NCBI GenBank assembly: GCA_049719955.1
Contig: JBNARC010000004.1
Coordinates: forward strand, 16,782 to 80,781
From: Moorellales bacterium
GTDB taxonomy: Bacteria; Bacillota; DSM-521; Neomoorellales; SLTJ01
Direction: 5' to 3'
Length of the DNA stretch: 64,000 nucleotides
Of this stretch, positions 3,114 to 39,370 are shown piece after piece. Positions within the stretch are counted from its first letter, which is position 1. Every line of letters begins with the position of its first letter. Below the pieces are notes generated by a model that saw only the letters and a program-made list of their open reading frames with translations, was not told the DNA's origin and ran no database searches. The translations under genes were made by a program, and so were the position numbers.

Positions 3114-4016
3114 TTGTCCGTGATTACCGGTCGGACCTTCGTATTGGGAATCATCGGTTGGCCGGTGGAGCACAGCGTTTCTCCGGCCATGCATAATGCC
3201 GCCCTGACCGCCCTGGGATTGGACGGGGTTTACGTGCCTTTTTCCGTGGCGCCACCGGACCTGGAAGCGGCCCTGAAGGGGCTTTGGGCCCTGGGAGTGC
3301 GGGGGGCAAACGTGACCGTTCCTCACAAGGAGGCGGTCATTCCTTTCTTAAGTCGTCTCAGTCCTGAAGCCAAAGCGATTGGAGCGGTGAACACCCTGGT
3401 TCGGGAAGACGGCGGCTGGACGGGGTATAACACCGACGGCGTCGGGTTCGTACGCTCTTTGGAAGAAGAATTAGGCCTGGCCGTAGGCGGTAGGCGGGCG
3501 CTGCTTCTGGGCGCGGGAGGAGCCGCGAGGGCGGTGGCCTTCGCTCTGGCCGGTGCCGGGGCCGGGGTGATCACCCTGGCTAACCGCAGCCGGGAGCGGG
3601 CCGAGGTGTTGGCTCGAGACCTCGCCCGGCAGGCGCAGGCGGAGGTCCATGTGCTGCCTCTGGAGCCGGAAGCCTTGGCCGGCGCTCTCGCGGAGAGTGA
3701 TCTCTTGATAAACTGCCTTCCGGTGGGCATGTACCCTCGGGTAGAGGAAATGCCCCCCGTGCCGGTGGAGAAGCTGTCTTCGAACCTGGTGGTTTGTGAC
3801 CTAATCTATAATCCTCGAAGCACGCGGTTGCTACAGGCAGCGCAGGCTCGGGGCTGCCGGACCCTGGACGGCCTGCCCATGCTGGTGGCTCAGGGGGCGG
3901 TGGCCTTCGAACTGTGGACGGGAAAGAGCGCGCCCCGAGAAACCATGCGCCTGGCGGCGGAGCAGGCCCTGGGCCGGGCCGGCGGTGGCGGGTTCCACGG
4001 CTCACCGGGACGGTAG
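3114..4016 (+). CDS. aroE: shikimate dehydrogenase
   Basis: Contains '[19 protein letters not shown]', '[11 protein letters not shown]', 'NTDGVGF' and the '[11 protein letters not shown]' Rossmann motif. Confidence 0.9.
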
Positions 4017-4032
4017 ACAAGGGGGAGAAGTC

Positions 4033-5223
4033 ATGGGCGCCCTTCGCTTCTTAACCGCCGGCGAATCCCACGGTCCCCAACTCACCGTGATTGTGGAAGG
4101 GGTGCCGGCGGGGCTGCCGCTGGAGGCGGAGTACATAAACCGGTGGCTCTCCCGGCGCCAGCAGGGGTACGGCCGGGGCGGCCGGATGGCCATTGAGCAG
4201 GATCGGGCGGAGATTGTGGCCGGAGTGAGGGGCGGGCTCACCCTGGGGTCGCCGATCGGGCTGGTAGTGCGCAACCGGGACTGGGAGAACTGGCGCGAGG
4301 TTATGGCTCCCGGTCCCGAGGCCCGGTTGGACGAGAGGGTAATAACCCGGCCTCGCCCGGGTCACGCCGATCTGGCCGGAGCCATGAAGTACCGGCACTT
4401 GGACCTGCGGAACGTGCTGGAGCGGGCCAGCGCCCGGGAGACGGCCGCCCGGGTGGCGGCGGGAGCGGTGGCGGCGCGCCTGTTGGAAGCGGTGGGGATC
4501 GAGCTTCGGGCCCACGTGGTGCGGATCGGGCCGGTGAAGGCGAGCGCCCCGGTCGATCCAGAGACCCTTGGCCGCGTTTGGTCTTCTCCCGTGTTCTGCG
4601 CCGACCCGGAGGCGGAGAAAGCCGTGATGGCGGCCATCGACCGGGCCCGGGAGGAGGGCGACACCCTGGGCGGCGTCTTTGAAATCTTGGTCCTGGGTCT
4701 TCCTCCCGGTTTGGGCAGCTACGCCCACTGGGATCGCCGGCTGGACGGAAGGCTGGCTCAGGCCCTCATGAGCATACCGGGGATAAGAGGGGTGGAGATC
4801 GGGCTGGGGTTTGAGGCCGCCTCCCGGCGGGGCTCGGAAGTTCACGACCCCATTTTCTGGGAGGCCGGGCGCGGCTTTTACCGGGGCAGCAACCACGCCG
4901 GGGGCCTGGAGGGCGGGGTTACCAACGGCCAGCCCTTGGTGCTGCGGGCGGCCATGAAGCCCATTCCCACCCTGCGCAAGCCGTTGGTCAGCGTGGACCT
5001 GCGCGACCGGCAGCCCGTATTGGCCGCTTACGAGCGATCGGATGTTTGCGCCGTGCCTGCGGCCAGCGTGGTGGGCGAGGCCATGGTGGCCCTGGTGCTG
5101 GCGGACGCTTTGCTGGAGAAGGTGGGCGGGGACAGCCTGGAGGAAGTGAGGGCCAACTTGGAGAATTACCGCCACCATCTGGCGGCCTTCGGCGGGGTGG
5201 AGGAAGATTCTAGAGAGAAGTAA
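4033..5223 (+). CDS. aroC: chorismate synthase
   Basis: Begins '[17 protein letters not shown]...' at ATG 4033, preceded by GGGGGAG. The 16 upstream codons of the track ORF are judged non-coding. '[10 protein letters not shown]' is also present. Confidence 0.9.
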
Positions 5224-5764: not shown

Positions 5765-6975
5765 GGCGGGAGCTGTGGGTGGAACTGGGGCCGCGGCGCT
5801 ATCCCATCTATATCGGTCGGGGATTGCTGGACGGGCTCGCCCGGCACCTGGATTTTTCTCCGGCCTCTTCGGCGCTTCTGGCCGTCTCCAACCCCACGGC
5901 AAGAGCCCTTTACGGGCCGCGATTAGAGGCCGGGTTGACGACCGGCGGCTGGCGCTTCGGCTGGGCCCTGGTGCCCGATTCCGAAGAGGCCAAGAGCCTG
6001 TCCGTTCTGGCCGACCTTTACCAGCAGGCCCTGGCCCTGGAGCTGGACCGGCGCTCGGCGGTGCTGGCCCTGGGAGGAGGCGTGGTGGGGGACGTAGGGG
6101 GTTTCTTGGCCGCTACCTACCTGCGGGGAATTGCCTACGTACAGATTCCCACCACCCTGCTGGCCCAGGTGGATTCTTCGGTGGGGGGTAAGGTGGCGGT
6201 AAACCTTCCCCAGGGAAAGAACTTGGTGGGCGCCTTTTACCAGCCACGCCTGGTTGTGGCCGACCTGGACACCCTGGCCACCCTGCCGGCGCGGGAGTGG
6301 CGCTGCGGGCTGGCGGAAGTGGTGAAGTACGGGGTTATAGGCGACCCGGAACTTTTCGCGCTGCTGGAAGAAAAAGCGGAACTGCTCGCCCCCTACACCG
6401 GCGCTACCGGAGAGGCACGGCCGACAGGCGAGGGCCGGGGGCGCAGCGGCGACCACGCCCGGAAAACGCTTGCCGCCGAAGATCCCGCCTCGGTCACCGG
6501 CGGCCTTTCGGAGGAGGCGGCCGGGCTACTGGAGGAGATCGTCTGGCGCTGCTGTCGAATTAAGGCGGAAGTGGTGGCCCGGGACGAGCGGGAGGAAGAG
6601 GGGCACCGGATGATCCTCAATTTCGGCCACACCGTGGGCCACGCCCTGGAGGCGCTGACCGGTTACCGGGACTGGCGCCACGGCGAGGCGGTGGCCGTAG
6701 GCATGGTGGCGGCCGGCCGGCTGGCCGTGCGTCTGGGCCTCTGGACGGCGGCGGAGGCGGAGCGGCTGGAAGCCCTCCTGCGGGCGTTCGGCCTGCCCGT
6801 GCGCCTGCCGCCGGGGCCGGAGCCCGAGACCATCGTGGCCGCCATGTACCGGGACAAGAAGGTGGTGGGCGGCAGCCTCACCCTGGTCCTGCCGCGCCGC
6901 CTGGGCGAGGTGGAGGTAGTGCGGGGGGTGCCGGAGGAGCAGGTGCTGGCGGCGCTGCGGGAGACCGGCTACTGA
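5761..6975 (+). CDS. aroB: 3-dehydroquinate synthase (with an internal low-complexity insertion)
   Basis: GTG 5761 overlaps the aroK stop (GTGA). Contains 'GGGVVGDVGGFLAATYLRGIAYVQIPTTLLAQVDSSVGGKVAVN' and 'LNFGHTVGHALE'. The first 115 codons of the track ORF (5416-5760) lie in another frame of aroK and are rejected. Confidence 0.9.
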   Translation: MRRELWVELGPRRYPIYIGRGLLDGLARHLDFSPASSALLAVSNPTARALYGPRLEAGLTTGGWRFGWALVPDSEEAKSLSVLADLYQQALALELDRRSAVLALGGGVVGDVGGFLAATYLRGIAYVQIPTTLLAQVDSSVGGKVAVNLPQGKNLVGAFYQPRLVVADLDTLATLPAREWRCGLAEVVKYGVIGDPELFALLEEKAELLAPYTGATGEARPTGEGRGRSGDHARKTLAAEDPASVTGGLSEEAAGLLEEIVWRCCRIKAEVVARDEREEEGHRMILNFGHTVGHALEALTGYRDWRHGEAVAVGMVAAGRLAVRLGLWTAAEAERLEALLRAFGLPVRLPPGPEPETIVAAMYRDKKVVGGSLTLVLPRRLGEVEVVRGVPEEQVLAALRETGY

Positions 6976-9845: not shown

Positions 9846-9870
9846 GGGCGAGGTAAGGGAGGGGAGAAGA

Positions 9871-11094
9871 GTGCCTACCTACCGTTACCGGGCGCGCGAT
9901 GCCCGTGGCCGGCTTCACATCGGTACGCTGGAAGCAGAGAGCGAGGTGGCCGTGACCCAGGAACTGCGTCGGCAGCAGTTCTTCCCGGTGGAGGTGAGGC
10001 TCCAGCAGCGTGTGGGCCTCCCCTCCCTAGCCTGGTCAAAGGAAGGGTGGTTTTCTCCCCGGCCTAAGAGCGGCGACCTGGCTTTCTTGTGCCGCCAGCT
10101 CGCCACCCTGGTGGGGGCGGGAGTGCCGGTGGTGCCGGCCCTGCGGGCGCTGGCCGAGCAGACGGCCAACCGGGCGCTTAAGCTGGCCCTGCGCGGGGTG
10201 GTGGGGCGGGTGGAGGGCGGCGCGGCGCTGGCCGAGGCCCTGGACGCCTTTCCCCGCATCTTCCCCCGCCTGATGGTGCGCATGGTGGCGGTGGGCGAAG
10301 TGGGCGGCGTGCTGGACGAGGTGTTAGAGCGCCTGGCCGCACATTTTGAACGAGAGCACGAACTGTACCAGAAGATTCGTTCTGCCCTCACCTACCCGGC
10401 GTTCGTTTTTCTAGCCGCCGTGGCGGTAGTGATTTTTCTCTTCCTGTCCGTGCTTCCCGTCTTTGGGCGGATGCTGGCCTCTCTTAACGTGCCGCTGCCC
10501 CTGCCTACGCTGGTGATTTTGGGCATCGGGGAAGCAGGGCGAAAGTATTGGTATTTTGCACCCCTGCTTCCCGCGGTGGCAGCTTTAATTGTCCGGCAAC
10601 ACCGCTCCACGCCAGGGGGGCGGAAGTGGTGGGATCAACGTCTTCTTTACTTACCGCTAGTGGGCGGGCTGTACCGGCAAGTAATAGTGTCCCGCTTCAG
10701 CCGGAGTCTAAGCACGCTCCTGCGGGGCGGCGTGCCGTTGCTTCAGGCCTTGGAGGTACTGAAAGGGATACTGGGCAACCTGGTCATGGAGGAGGGGCTA
10801 GACCAGGTCCAGGAAGCCATCCGTCGCGGCGAAAGCTTGGTCGCAGCTTTGGAACGAACCGGACTATTCCCGCCAATGGTCACCCAAATGATCGCTGTAG
10901 GCGAGGAATCGGGCACGCTGGACGCCCTCCTGGAGCGGGTCAGCATATTTTACGACCGGGAGGTGGAGGCAGCTACCGCTCGGCTATCCAGCCTGATAGA
11001 GCCCATACTGATCCTGGTGATGGGCGGGGTGGTAGGTACGGTGGTGGTTTCGGTGTTGCTGCCCATGCTGACCGTAGTGCGGAACGTACGTTAG
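9871..11094 (+). CDS. pilC: type IV pilus platform protein PilC (T2SS F family)
   Basis: The 407-aa protein has two T2SF repeats ('FPRLMVRMVAVGEVGGVLDEVLERL' and 'FPPMVTQMIAVGEESGTLDALLERV') and three hydrophobic segments. Confidence 0.9.
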   Translation: MPTYRYRARDARGRLHIGTLEAESEVAVTQELRRQQFFPVEVRLQQRVGLPSLAWSKEGWFSPRPKSGDLAFLCRQLATLVGAGVPVVPALRALAEQTANRALKLALRGVVGRVEGGAALAEALDAFPRIFPRLMVRMVAVGEVGGVLDEVLERLAAHFEREHELYQKIRSALTYPAFVFLAAVAVVIFLFLSVLPVFGRMLASLNVPLPLPTLVILGIGEAGRKYWYFAPLLPAVAALIVRQHRSTPGGRKWWDQRLLYLPLVGGLYRQVIVSRFSRSLSTLLRGGVPLLQALEVLKGILGNLVMEEGLDQVQEAIRRGESLVAALERTGLFPPMVTQMIAVGEESGTLDALLERVSIFYDREVEAATARLSSLIEPILILVMGGVVGTVVVSVLLPMLTVVRNVR

Positions 11095-11204: not shown

Positions 11205-11302
11205 GAGGATACCGAAAGGGCAAACCCGGCGAAAGTCGGGGGCGCAAAGCCGCGGGCCTAAGGACCGAGGGCGGGTCTAAGGTGGCCGGGCTGCCGAAGT
11301 CG
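11205..11302 (+). promoter_or_regulatory. c-di-GMP-I (GEMM-I) riboswitch aptamer
   Basis: 'AAAGGGCAAACCCGGCGAAAGUCGGGGGCGCAAAGCCGCGGGCCUAAGGACC...GGUCUAAGGUGGCCGGGCUGCCGAAG' aligns almost position for position with the Vibrio Vc2 aptamer. Shared elements are GGGCAAACC, a GAAA tetraloop, GGGACGCAAAGCC, CCGGCCUAA and GGUAGCGGGGUUACCGA. Confidence 0.85.
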
Positions 11303-29959: not shown

Positions 29960-30346
29960 GTGGAGGCGGGACAGATCGTAGGGCTGGGGCTGATTGCGGC
30001 GGTTTTATTGGTAGTAGTCCGCCAGCAGCGGCCGGAGTTGGCCCTGTTGCTCAGCGTGGCCGCGGGGGGAGTGATATTCCTTTTGATACTGAGCCAGGTA
30101 GGTCGGGTAACCGAGGTGTTAGACCGACTGGCCACGGCGGCCCGGGTGGATCGCCTTTACCTAGGCACCCTCCTTAAGATTATCGGCGTGAGTTATCTGG
30201 CCGAATTCGGCGCCCAGGTCTGCCGGGATGCGGGAGAGCAGGCCGTGGCCGCACGGGTGGAAATGGCGGCCAAGATACTAATCGTAGTGCTGGCCTTGCC
30301 CATCGTAGTGGCGGTTTTGGACACGGTGATGAGGTTAGTGCCATGA
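29960..30346 (+). CDS. spoIIIAD: stage III sporulation protein AD
   Basis: The 128-aa protein has four hydrophobic helices and 'LLKIIGVSYLAEFGAQVCRDAGE'. Confidence 0.88.
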   Translation: MEAGQIVGLGLIAAVLLVVVRQQRPELALLLSVAAGGVIFLLILSQVGRVTEVLDRLATAARVDRLYLGTLLKIIGVSYLAEFGAQVCRDAGEQAVAARVEMAAKILIVVLALPIVVAVLDTVMRLVP

Positions 30347-31521
30347 GAGCGGTCATGGGACTGGCGGTGGGCGGTATCTTGGTTCTTTGGTGCCTTTGGG
30401 CGGGCGCGGCCGAGGCCGCGACGGAGGTGAACCCGGACCCGGTGGGGGGTATCCTTGAGCGTCTGGACTTTGGTCGTGCCGAGGCCCTGGTGCTGGAGGC
30501 AGGCCCCGAAGGGGAAAACCCTTGGCCTCAGGTGAGCCTCCGGGGCATATTGGCCGATCTACAGGCGGGCCGACCGGTGCTTGACTTTCGGACGCTTTTG
30601 TCTTCCCTGGGACGCTTTTTAGGGGGGGAGGTCCTGGCCGGTGCACGAGTGATGGGGCGGCTCGTAGTGCTGGCGGTGCTTTGCGCCGTGCTGCACAACC
30701 TTCAAGCAGCGTTCGAGCGCCGCACCGTGGGTGAGGTGGCCTATTTCGTGGTATTCCTGGCCCTGGTGGCGCTGGCCCTAGGGTCTTTCTCTTCCGCCCT
30801 ACAGTCGGGCCGGGAGGTGGTGGATAGGATGACCGCCTTTATGCAGGCCCTACTACCGGGACTGTTAGTCCTGCTCACCGCCCTGGGCGGAGCGGCCACT
30901 TCGGCGGTAGTCCACCCCCTAGTTCTGGGGTGTTTGGCCCTGGCCGGTACCCTGGTGCGGGACGTAGTGCTACCCCTCCTTTACCTCGCCGCCACGCTTA
31001 CCATAGTAGGGAGGATTTCCGATCGGTTTCCGGTTTCCCGCTTGGCGGATACCTTAAAGAGCGTGGCCGTCATCTGCCTGGGCCTGTTCATTACCCTGGC
31101 GGTTGGAATGCTGGCGGTTCAGGGAGCGGCCGCGGGCGCGGTGGACAGCCTTACCTTGCGGACCGCCAAGTTCGCTTCTACCGCCCTGGTGCCGGTCATA
31201 GGCAAGACCCTGACCGACGCGGTGGAGGCGGTAGCCAGCGCCTCACTATTGGTTCAGAGTGCGGCCAGTCTTCTGGGAGTGATGGGTTTGTTGGGAATGG
31301 CCTTGTTTCCCGCTCTAAAAATTGGGGTGCTGGCCTTGATCTTTCACCTTACCGCCGCGCTAATTCAACCCTTTGGAGACACCCGCATTAGCGACACCTT
31401 GGCGGCCATGGGAGGGACTTTGGGCCTGGTCTTCGCGGTAGTGTTGGCCGTGGCCTTGTTCTTCTTCCTGGCCTTGAGCGTGGTGGTGGGGCTGGGGAAC
31501 CTTAAGGCCCTGTGGTGGTAG
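30343..31521 (+). CDS. spoIIIAE: stage III sporulation protein AE
   Basis: The start overlaps the spoIIIAD stop. It is a polytopic membrane protein of 392 aa with 'TAKFASTALVPVIGKTLTDAVE'. Confidence 0.88.
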   Translation: MRAVMGLAVGGILVLWCLWAGAAEAATEVNPDPVGGILERLDFGRAEALVLEAGPEGENPWPQVSLRGILADLQAGRPVLDFRTLLSSLGRFLGGEVLAGARVMGRLVVLAVLCAVLHNLQAAFERRTVGEVAYFVVFLALVALALGSFSSALQSGREVVDRMTAFMQALLPGLLVLLTALGGAATSAVVHPLVLGCLALAGTLVRDVVLPLLYLAATLTIVGRISDRFPVSRLADTLKSVAVICLGLFITLAVGMLAVQGAAAGAVDSLTLRTAKFASTALVPVIGKTLTDAVEAVASASLLVQSAASLLGVMGLLGMALFPALKIGVLALIFHLTAALIQPFGDTRISDTLAAMGGTLGLVFAVVLAVALFFFLALSVVVGLGNLKALWW

Positions 31522-31556
31522 CGGTGCTGGAGCTGACGTATCCCCGATTTCCCTAA

Positions 31557-31769
31557 GGCGGTACCGGGTGCTCCCCGTTCGTACTGTCACCTCGCCGACC
31601 GAAGTAGGGCTTGGTCTTCGCCCTCCAGCGGGCGCCCGGCGGAAGCGCCATCCGTGGCGCCCCGCCGCTTCGGCCGTCCTGAGGCCTGGCGCCCGCCTTC
31701 GCGCTCGCCCTCGCCAAGGTCGGTATCCGGCGAGGTGCCAACGTACTCAGAAGAGCACCCGGTACCGCC
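31557..31769. repeat. ~213-nt palindromic (long-hairpin) element in the spoIIIAE-spoIIIAF spacer
   Basis: A perfect 17-bp inverted repeat pairs GGCGGTACCGGGTGCTC (31557-31573) with GAGCACCCGGTACCGCC (31753-31769). A second 10-bp pair is CACCTCGCCG (31588-31597) with CGGCGAGGTG (31728-31737). The GC-rich core contains three GGCGCCC(C)GCC-like units and nested hairpins. Confidence 0.8.
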
Positions 31770-31797
31770 AGCGAACGCGGAAGAGGGGATAACTCAG

Positions 31798-32343
31798 GTG
31801 CTAGAAGTGTTGACCGACCTGGTACGTACTGTCGTCCTGTTGGTACTCCTGGCAGTACTGGTAGAGATGCTTTTACCTTCCGGGGAGTTGGCCCGGTTTG
31901 TGCGGTTGGTGATGGGGCTGTTCGTGCTGGCCGCGGTCCTGGGAGCGGTGGGGCGGTTCCTGCCCCATCTGGGAGAGGCGGTTCCCAGTCTCGCGCCGGC
32001 GGGGAACGGGGCGGTGGCGGTGGACGAGCGGATTCGGTCCCTGGAGGCCTATCAGCGGGAGGCGGTCTGGAGCCTCCTGGAGCACCAGCTCAAGCGGCAG
32101 GTCGAAGCGGCGCTAACGAGTTTGGGCCTTGAGGTCAGGGAAGTAAAGATTCGAGCAGATTCGGAGTGGCGGTGGGGTCAAGGGCCCACCTGGGACGGCC
32201 TGGAGGTTTACCTGAGTCGAGCCGGCGCGAAACGCCACTCGGAACCCGGAGAACTGGCTCGGTACCAGGAGGAGGTGAGGCAGCAACTGGCGCAGGTTCT
32301 AGGCCTTTCCCCAGAGCAGATAGAAGTAAACTGGACGGAATAA
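31798..32343 (+). CDS. spoIIIAF: stage III sporulation protein AF
   Basis: GTG 31798 follows GAAGAGGGG. The N-terminus 'VLEVLTDLVRTVVLLVLLAVLVEMLLPSG' aligns with the start of Bacillus SpoIIIAF. The 48 upstream codons of the track ORF lie inside the palindromic element and are rejected. Confidence 0.82.
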   Translation: MLEVLTDLVRTVVLLVLLAVLVEMLLPSGELARFVRLVMGLFVLAAVLGAVGRFLPHLGEAVPSLAPAGNGAVAVDERIRSLEAYQREAVWSLLEHQLKRQVEAALTSLGLEVREVKIRADSEWRWGQGPTWDGLEVYLSRAGAKRHSEPGELARYQEEVRQQLAQVLGLSPEQIEVNWTE

Positions 32344-38719: not shown

Positions 38720-39370
38720 CTTCTTTATCGGCGCGAGCCTCCGATCGGTAGGTGGTGCAGTATTCTAGTCAGGAAGGCTTCTTCTGAAGGCGGGCCTAAA
38801 AATCCGCCAAGGGCACAGCGATGAAGCTTCTGGTGCTGGCCGCTGACGCCCAGTCGGGGGCTGGTGCTGGGAGACTAGGGGGCCGGGCAGCCCGCAATGG
38901 CATGCGGGTGGCGTCCCGACCTCCGCGGAGACCTGAGTGCGTGGTCTGGCGGCTACGGCTCAGGAGAGAAACCTGCATGTCGGTACGTCGGGTGCTGGCT
39001 GCAGTGTAGCCTGCCCTGAGTGGTACGGGCGGATGTTGGCGATGACCCGTCGAGCCTGTGGGCCGCAGGCTCGGTTCGGTAGCGGCTGAAACTCGTGCTG
39101 CAAAAGGGGCTAGGAAGAGGCCGGACTGTCGAGGAAAGCTCCTAGACTGCCTACCGCTAGGGTAGGGCCCAGCCGGGATTAAAGTGTGCTCTAAGTGGTA
39201 ATCTAGCCCTGCCTTGGGCGACCGGGCAGTGCGGTCCTTAAAGGGAAACCGCCGGGTCGGCGACGGCCGGTGGACCGTAGGGAAAGCCTGCTAGACCTTA
39301 AGGCGCAACGTTTACCGGCTGGGCTACCACCTGCCGTAGGTTAATTCATTCGTCAGAGGAATCGGGGTGG
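38720..39370 (+). ncRNA. ole: probable OLE (ornate, large, extremophilic) RNA; boundaries approximate
   Basis: The 778-nt gap has no credible ORF and lies exactly in the ispA - X - small membrane protein - dxs context known for OLE RNA. Numerous GC-rich local helices are visible. The consensus could not be aligned by eye. Confidence 0.65.

Follow-up and report, generated by a model that had tools for sequence, protein, structure and literature searches.

A 265-bp palindromic insertion between spoIIIAE and spoIIIAF of a Moorellales bacterium is probably a MITE with IS10-like ends

REP/BIME sequences are RAYT-associated palindromes of 20 to 40 nt, and to our knowledge neither they nor the elements derived from the IS200/IS605 family show target duplications or terminal inverted repeats. 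The Correia repeat enclosed elements, which are MITEs, measure 100 to 155 bp, are comparatively rich in A+T and have TA duplications and 26-bp repeats. Correia hairpins are co-transcribed and are cut by RNase III at the paired terminal repeats (PMC2649163; PMC10969869). According to the description of prokaryotic MITEs that was used as the basis of classification in the present study (PMC10969869), such elements are small (under about 500 bp), lack a transposase gene, carry terminal inverted repeats and are associated with target duplications; they are usually A+T-rich (PMC10969869). Chunjie, a MITE from Geobacter uraniireducens, is known to sit within an operon (PMC10969869). The IS10 subgroup of insertion sequences is characterised by CT ends and 9-bp direct repeats (PMC2266710 Table 1) and is mostly proteobacterial (PMC2266710).

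The window, that is the whole stretch of 64 kb of Moorellales DNA that was analysed, has a G+C content of 62% and contains a complete spoIIIAA-AH operon, bordered on one side by efp and on the other by asp23-like genes, nusB and folD. The spoIIIAE gene (30343-31521, + strand) ends with the stop codon TAG at 31519-31521, and its product is 100% identical to the NCBI-named stage III sporulation protein AE of a Moorellales bacterium MAG (Pfam PF09546). The spoIIIAF gene (31798-32343, + strand) encodes a protein of 181 aa with a PF09581 domain at residues 13-178 (E = 6e-21). The original prediction had singled out the spacer between the two genes as exceptional within the operon, and indeed it comprises 276 nt while all other spoIIIA junctions either overlap or are separated by at most 30 nt. 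Its placement of the true SpoIIIAF start at GTG 31798 agrees with the position of the Pfam domain directly after this codon and with the start chosen by PGAP in a sister MAG.

Two structured RNAs were detected elsewhere in the window. The first is an OLE (ornate large extremophilic) RNA of full length at 38736-39346 (+ strand; 495 bits, E = 2e-142), which lies downstream of the operon at a distance of about 7 kb; the second is a c-di-GMP-I riboswitch aptamer at 11209-11298 (+ strand; 81 bits compared to a gathering score of 35).

The spacer is dominated by a palindrome. An inverted-repeat search recovered, at exactly the coordinates originally reported, a perfect 17-bp inverted repeat with its left arm GGCGGTACCGGGTGCTC at 31557-31573 (+ strand) and its right arm at 31753-31769 (- strand), the two arms enclosing 179 nt. 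The further arm pairing noticed before was recovered as a second pair of 13 nt with 92% complementarity (31585-31597 and 31728-31740), and the previously described nested hairpins of the core and its three GGCGCCC(C)GCC-like units were found again, the latter at about 31631, 31656 and 31688. The central core with its nested hairpins (31620-31712) corresponds to the portion common to a second repeat family, which was seen in a related locus (L111) considered below. The symmetry is also reflected in two mirror ORFs already observed in the first reading of the sequence, one on the + strand (31654-32343) and one on the - strand (31553-31741), both of which begin with MAPRR and contain EHPVPP. Folding of the spacer, which had been suggested as a check, yielded structures far more stable than those of shuffled sequences on both strands: -151.9 kcal/mol on the + strand (shuffle mean -119, z = -6.45) and -164.1 kcal/mol on the - strand (shuffle mean -126, z = -6.38), with 0 of 200 shuffles being as stable in either case.

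The origin of the spacer became apparent in the comparison of orthologous junctions. In all six relatives inspected, namely L102, L104, L107, L109, L118 and L119 with SpoIIIAE identities of 81%, 75%, 71%, 70%, 66% and 60%, respectively, the spacer is absent and spoIIIAF directly follows spoIIIAE with an overlap or a distance of at most 14 nt. This comparison had been proposed with a view to the possibility that the sequence is part of a longer, conserved SpoIIIAF coding region; the relatives have neither the sequence nor a longer SpoIIIAF. In L118 (8847-9358) the spoIIIAB gene was called at only 95 aa, leaving an apparent gap of 224 nt after spoIIIAA, which is probably a frameshift or a problem of the start codon call rather than an insertion since the total length equals that of the normal gene of 172 aa.

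Alignment of the junctions of L102, L104, L107 and L109 with the window revealed one clean insertion of 274 bp in the latter, corresponding to 265 bp plus 9 bp. The four aligned relatives contain a single 9-mer of the form GTGCT(C/G)GA(G/A/C) shortly past the spoIIIAE stop codon, their junction reading TGGTGGTAG-CC-GTGCTCGAG-GTACTC and similar, and the order in the window is TAG-CG-GTGCTGGAG-[265 bp]-GTGCTAGAA-GTGTTG. As the 9-mer occurs once in the empty sites and twice in the window, the inserted sequence can be delimited as an element of 265 bp (31533-31797) flanked by a 9-bp duplication. The left copy of the target site, GTGCTGGAG (31524-31532, + strand), is separated by 2 nt from the stop codon of spoIIIAE and reads as the ancestral start of spoIIIAF (GTG CTG GAG). 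The right copy, GTGCTAGAA, represents codons 1-3 of the present spoIIIAF (31798-31806, + strand). Both copies match at 7 of 9 positions, the mismatches at positions 6 and 9 being the third bases of spoIIIAF codons 2 and 3 and synonymous (Leu, Glu). Judged from the sequences, this restriction to synonymous differences is the pattern expected of an old duplication of which the right copy has been under selection at the protein level.

The sister MAG GCA_049721505.1 (L117), the SpoIIIAE of which is identical at 391 of 392 positions (99.7%), carries the insertion base for base identical, and PGAP calls its SpoIIIAF with 181 aa from the same GTG. Within a single Moorellales species, two MAGs or more have the insertion fixed, and every spoIIIA gene has remained intact.

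Based on the junction alignment, the nhmmer profile and the folds, the element is an imperfect palindrome over its full length with about 70% G+C, which speaks against a MITE in so far as those of prokaryotes are usually A+T-rich. The palindrome of about 213 nt in the original prediction was thus recognised correctly as such and delimited too narrowly; its size had to be corrected to 265 bp because imperfect terminal repeats run beyond the 17-bp arms up to the spoIIIAF start codon. This outer pair, which had been missed before, consists of 13-nt terminal inverted repeats, CTGACGTATCCCC on the left (31533-31545, + strand) and CTGAGTTATCCCC on the right (31785-31797, read inward on the - strand), and extends imperfectly into the perfect 17-bp repeat. 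No coding capacity could be assigned to the element. A Pfam search with two ORFs yielded no match, and no homologues were found among called proteins for any of the six reading frames, the queries being the one frame that is open in all copies and subsequently the other five frames concatenated from two copies.

A scan of metagenome contigs for the element end with a part of the 17-bp repeat behind it retrieved four contigs carrying further copies in unrelated contexts, which share 81-89% identity with the copy in the window. In L113 a full copy (415-688) separates the 3' end of rpoC from L7Ae-like/rpsL genes, and the 9-bp duplication on its two sides, CGGAGCCTG, matches at 9 of 9 positions. 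The full copy in L115 (568-842), which is 97% identical to that in L113, is located upstream of a cobU-like gene and has no duplication, which is a point against the interpretation of the element as a MITE. The copy in L114, located downstream of a NifU-like gene, is degenerate at its right end, and the L112 contig begins inside the fourth copy. The left 17-bp arm GGCGGTACCGGGTGCTC is invariant across all full copies. In L114 (745-800) the sequence GGTACC is kept and the terminal GGGGATAACTCAG is gone, and the TGGTGGC just outside the right end corresponds to the left flank, GCCACCA, in reverse complement. In L112 a gene for a DDE transposase of 452 aa with DUF772 and DDE_Tnp_1 domains (264-1622) is situated 190 nt beyond the end of the copy. 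Its best NCBIfam match is IS1182, with a score under the cut-off of that model, and its neighbourhood to the copy suggests a local cluster of mobile elements.

Altogether, the element occurs at five different loci over metagenome contigs and MAGs. Within the 64-kb window it is present as a single copy, as stated in the original prediction: profile and repeat searches of the window gave no second copy, and the sole match of an nhmmer profile built from the copies coincides with the exact bounds of the element (31533-31797). Another inverted repeat in the window (9851-10033) was considered as a further MITE and rejected, for it overlaps a coding ORF. An exact search of a genome collection with the 17-mer gave at least 101 matches; among the 80 listed none belonged to Moorellales, the matches listed occurring once each in unrelated high-G+C genomes and being attributable to chance. 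Two scans of viral contigs as well as BLAST searches against plasmids and phages revealed no match to the element.

The ends of the element resemble those of IS10/Tn10. On plasmid R100 the IS10 ends were read as CTGATGAATCCCC and CTGAGAGATCCCC, and the gene enclosed by them carries the annotation of an IS4-like transposase of the ISVsa5 family. These ends share with both ends of the element the sequence CTGA followed by two variable bases and (A/T)ATCCCC, and a single consensus accommodates 11 of the first 13 positions when all four ends are compared. Both features of the IS10 subgroup, 5'-CT termini (both element ends begin with CTGA) and the 9-bp duplication, are present. The element differs from IS10 in being without a transposase gene, in its length of 265 bp compared to about 1.3 kb and in being a G+C-rich palindrome throughout; furthermore, its host is a Firmicute of the Moorellales, whereas the subgroup is mostly found in proteobacteria. 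The ends and the 9-bp duplication suggest an IS4-family transposase belonging to the IS10 subgroup, and mobilisation by such an enzyme is probable on the basis of these sequence features, which provide a good lead rather than a proof. Acting in trans, the transposase would have inserted the element by cut-and-paste transposition exactly at the point where the spoIIIAE stop and the spoIIIAF start meet, duplicating 9 bp of the target. A search with the IS10 transposase against the window and every fetched locus detected no IS10-like transposase and hence no DDE enzyme with the YREK motif of this subgroup. A candidate partner element, if it has matching ends, would be bounded by CTGAnnTATCCCC. 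The transposase encoded in L112 was rejected as the partner, being outside the element terminus and IS1182/IS5-like.

We therefore assign the spacer, with a probability of roughly 85%, to a non-autonomous transposable element (MITE) of 265 bp that was inserted with a 9-bp duplication by a transposase supplied in trans, for which its ends suggest the IS10 subgroup. The element corresponds to the description of MITEs in being small and non-coding, in its terminal inverted repeats and target duplications and in the empty orthologous sites; copies occur at unrelated loci of metagenome contigs, and the suggestion in the original prediction that a mobile palindrome had landed in the operon is borne out by the same observations. 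With its copies on metagenome contigs, its terminal and direct repeats and its position within an operon, the element is reminiscent of the Chunjie MITE (~235 bp, dispersed intergenic copies; PMC10969869). Chunjie belongs to another sequence family and host, however, and 38 full and 57 partial copies are documented in one genome. One observation speaks against an ordinary MITE lineage, for which it would be unusual: when the window family is compared with that of L111, the center is better conserved than the ends.

Consequences of the insertion for spoIIIAF expression seem plausible from the predicted structure. In the relatives the spacing between the spoIIIAE stop codon and the spoIIIAF GTG, which amounts to 2 nt or an overlap, appears typical of translational coupling. 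The insertion would have moved the spoIIIAF start 274 nt downstream, so that the direct stop-start coupling to spoIIIAE would be lost, and the operon mRNA would carry a hairpin of about 265 nt. A Shine-Dalgarno-like sequence GAGGGG is located within the right end of the element 9 nt before the GTG (31783-31788, + strand), where other copies have GTGGGG or CTGGGG. For 31779-31788 (GGAAGAGGGG), which the predicted hairpin pairs with the left end, the computed probability of being unpaired was 0.115; it rose to 0.46 when positions 31524-31569 were held open to mimic a ribosome on the micro-ORF described below. We infer that spoIIIAF receives its Shine-Dalgarno sequence from the right end of the MITE and that the hairpin buries this sequence.

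The left duplication copy and the left end of the element together form a micro-ORF of 10 codons (MLELTYPRFP, stop codon TAA; 31524-31556, + strand), which retains the native upstream GGTGG and the layout of the relatives with the GTG 2 nt after the stop codon. Ribosomes leaving spoIIIAE would re-initiate on this micro-ORF at the old start and would melt the outer stem, thereby exposing the Shine-Dalgarno sequence of spoIIIAF and licensing initiation. Translation of the micro-ORF may in this manner re-open the buried site. Alternatively or additionally, cleavage of the long stem by RNase III would expose the spoIIIAF site. The RNA processing or stability element considered in the original prediction may in this sense be a consequence of the insertion. 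The Correia elements, which have no sequence similarity to the element described here, may serve as a model for such effects as co-transcribed MITE hairpins able to change the expression of flanking genes.

Such effects raise the question whether the MITE has been domesticated, in that its hairpin is now kept because it sets the ratio of SpoIIIAA-AE to SpoIIIAF-AH, be it through processing by RNase III, through stabilisation of the mRNA or through gating of translation. We consider this unlikely. Unequal dosage is plausible given that in Bacillus subtilis an internal promoter boosts spoIIIAG-AH. The insertion is fixed, identical in two MAGs and accompanied by intact genes; however, the two MAGs represent nearly the same strain and their identity says little about selection. 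The GAGGGG at the Shine-Dalgarno position, compared to GTGGGG or CTGGGG in the other copies, would likewise agree with domestication. Covariation, on the other hand, was essentially absent within the window family, with a positive covariation term and 2 of 91 pairs compensated. This would count against domestication, although the copies are too few and too much alike for it to carry weight.

A further argument for domestication comes from related palindromic repeats at two other junctions of the operon, AF-AG in L111 and AG-AH in L104, which represent two other lineages. In L111 (GCA_014360105.1; SpoIIIAE 70% identical) a palindromic element of 296 nt (3900-4195) fills the spacer between spoIIIAF and spoIIIAG, which folds at -183 kcal/mol (z = -8.0). 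Its center is homologous to that of the element in the window (E values of 4e-13 and 4e-9 with nhmmer), its ends are different, and its right arm holds the Shine-Dalgarno sequence of spoIIIAG. Compensating double changes were seen in 12 of 58 core pairs once L111 was included. In L104 (SpoIIIAE 75% identical) a spacer of 144 nt (5985-6128) between spoIIIAG and spoIIIAH matches the L111 element at its ends over 27 of 32 nt and over a second stretch. This spacer is unstructured (z = -0.27) and looks like a copy with an internal deletion. Related repeats were consequently present in three of the seven lineages sampled, each at a different distal spoIIIA junction. The palindromic elements at AE-AF and AF-AG both reach the downstream start codon and include its Shine-Dalgarno sequence, and the remnant in L104 also ends in one. 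No such element was found elsewhere in the 64-kb window or in the surveyed flanks of these operons.

Four independent short-read contigs of the L111 lineage (L109, L122, L124 and L125), which originate from different runs, all end 86-89 nt past the spoIIIAF stop codon within an element of the L111 type. These ends could be due to a multi-copy repeat breaking the assembly or to a drop in coverage at a G+C-rich hairpin.

The number of recurrences is small, and it is derived from a sample biased by the choice of the loci through spoIIIAE. The recurrence could result from a target preference, from selection for the hairpin or from chance in a small sample. That repeats of this clade have repeatedly been recruited as expression-partitioning hairpins in the distal part of spoIIIA is unlikely, though it would agree with the higher conservation of the center relative to the transposition ends and with the compensated pairs between the families. 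If true, it would imply selection on an RNA hairpin that tunes the stoichiometry of the SpoIIIA channel rather than on mobility.

The element might also carry an internal promoter or a protein-binding site, as had been considered in the original prediction and as is known of some MITEs such as the Correia elements, which create promoters or bind IHF (PMC2649163; PMC10969869). This seems very unlikely, since a scan of positions 31300-32000 for sigma-70-like promoters, the only promoter type covered, and for intrinsic terminators detected neither within the element, and its G+C content of 70% also argues against a promoter.

The original prediction had furthermore grouped the palindrome with MITE- and REP-like repeats, of which the first part holds and the second has to be abandoned. 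With REP/BIME sequences moved by RAYT and with palindromic elements of the IS200/IS605 family it shares its shortness, its palindromic structure and its intergenic location, yet a membership in these classes is highly improbable, taking into account the 9-bp duplication at two sites, the 13-nt terminal repeats and a length of 265 bp, which is far above the 20-40 nt of REP sequences.

A native cis-regulatory RNA or small RNA gene of the spoIIIA operon would agree with the strong fold predicted on both strands. We regard it as hardly credible, however, given that the element is absent from the junctions of the six relatives, recurs in unrelated surroundings, for example downstream of rpoC or upstream of the cobU-like gene, and had no match to Rfam at E values up to 10, with nothing reaching a gathering score. 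Just as little credit can be given to an N-terminal extension of SpoIIIAF from the in-frame GTG at 31654: although the frame is open from there into spoIIIAF, several frames are open merely due to the high G+C content, the 48 additional residues match no family and the domain starts after 31798, the relatives start at the equivalent of 31798, and PGAP predicts 181 aa.

The interpretation as a MITE accounts for the odd gap in a conserved and tightly coupled sporulation operon, and it may serve as a warning to annotators to predict neither a long SpoIIIAF nor a new RNA at this junction. The insertion of a MITE at a gene junction is an ordinary kind of event, of which the present case is a tidy example, and the possible recurrence at spoIIIA junctions is the sole part that could exceed the ordinary. 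The family itself, a G+C-rich MITE with IS10-like ends, appears not to have been described previously and belongs to uncultured Moorellales, in which the IS10 subgroup is hardly known. The insertion may also represent a natural experiment, in which a hairpin of 265 nt has come between two translationally coupled genes; the site of ribosome binding now in use is presumably provided by the element, and the former start is kept in a micro-ORF.
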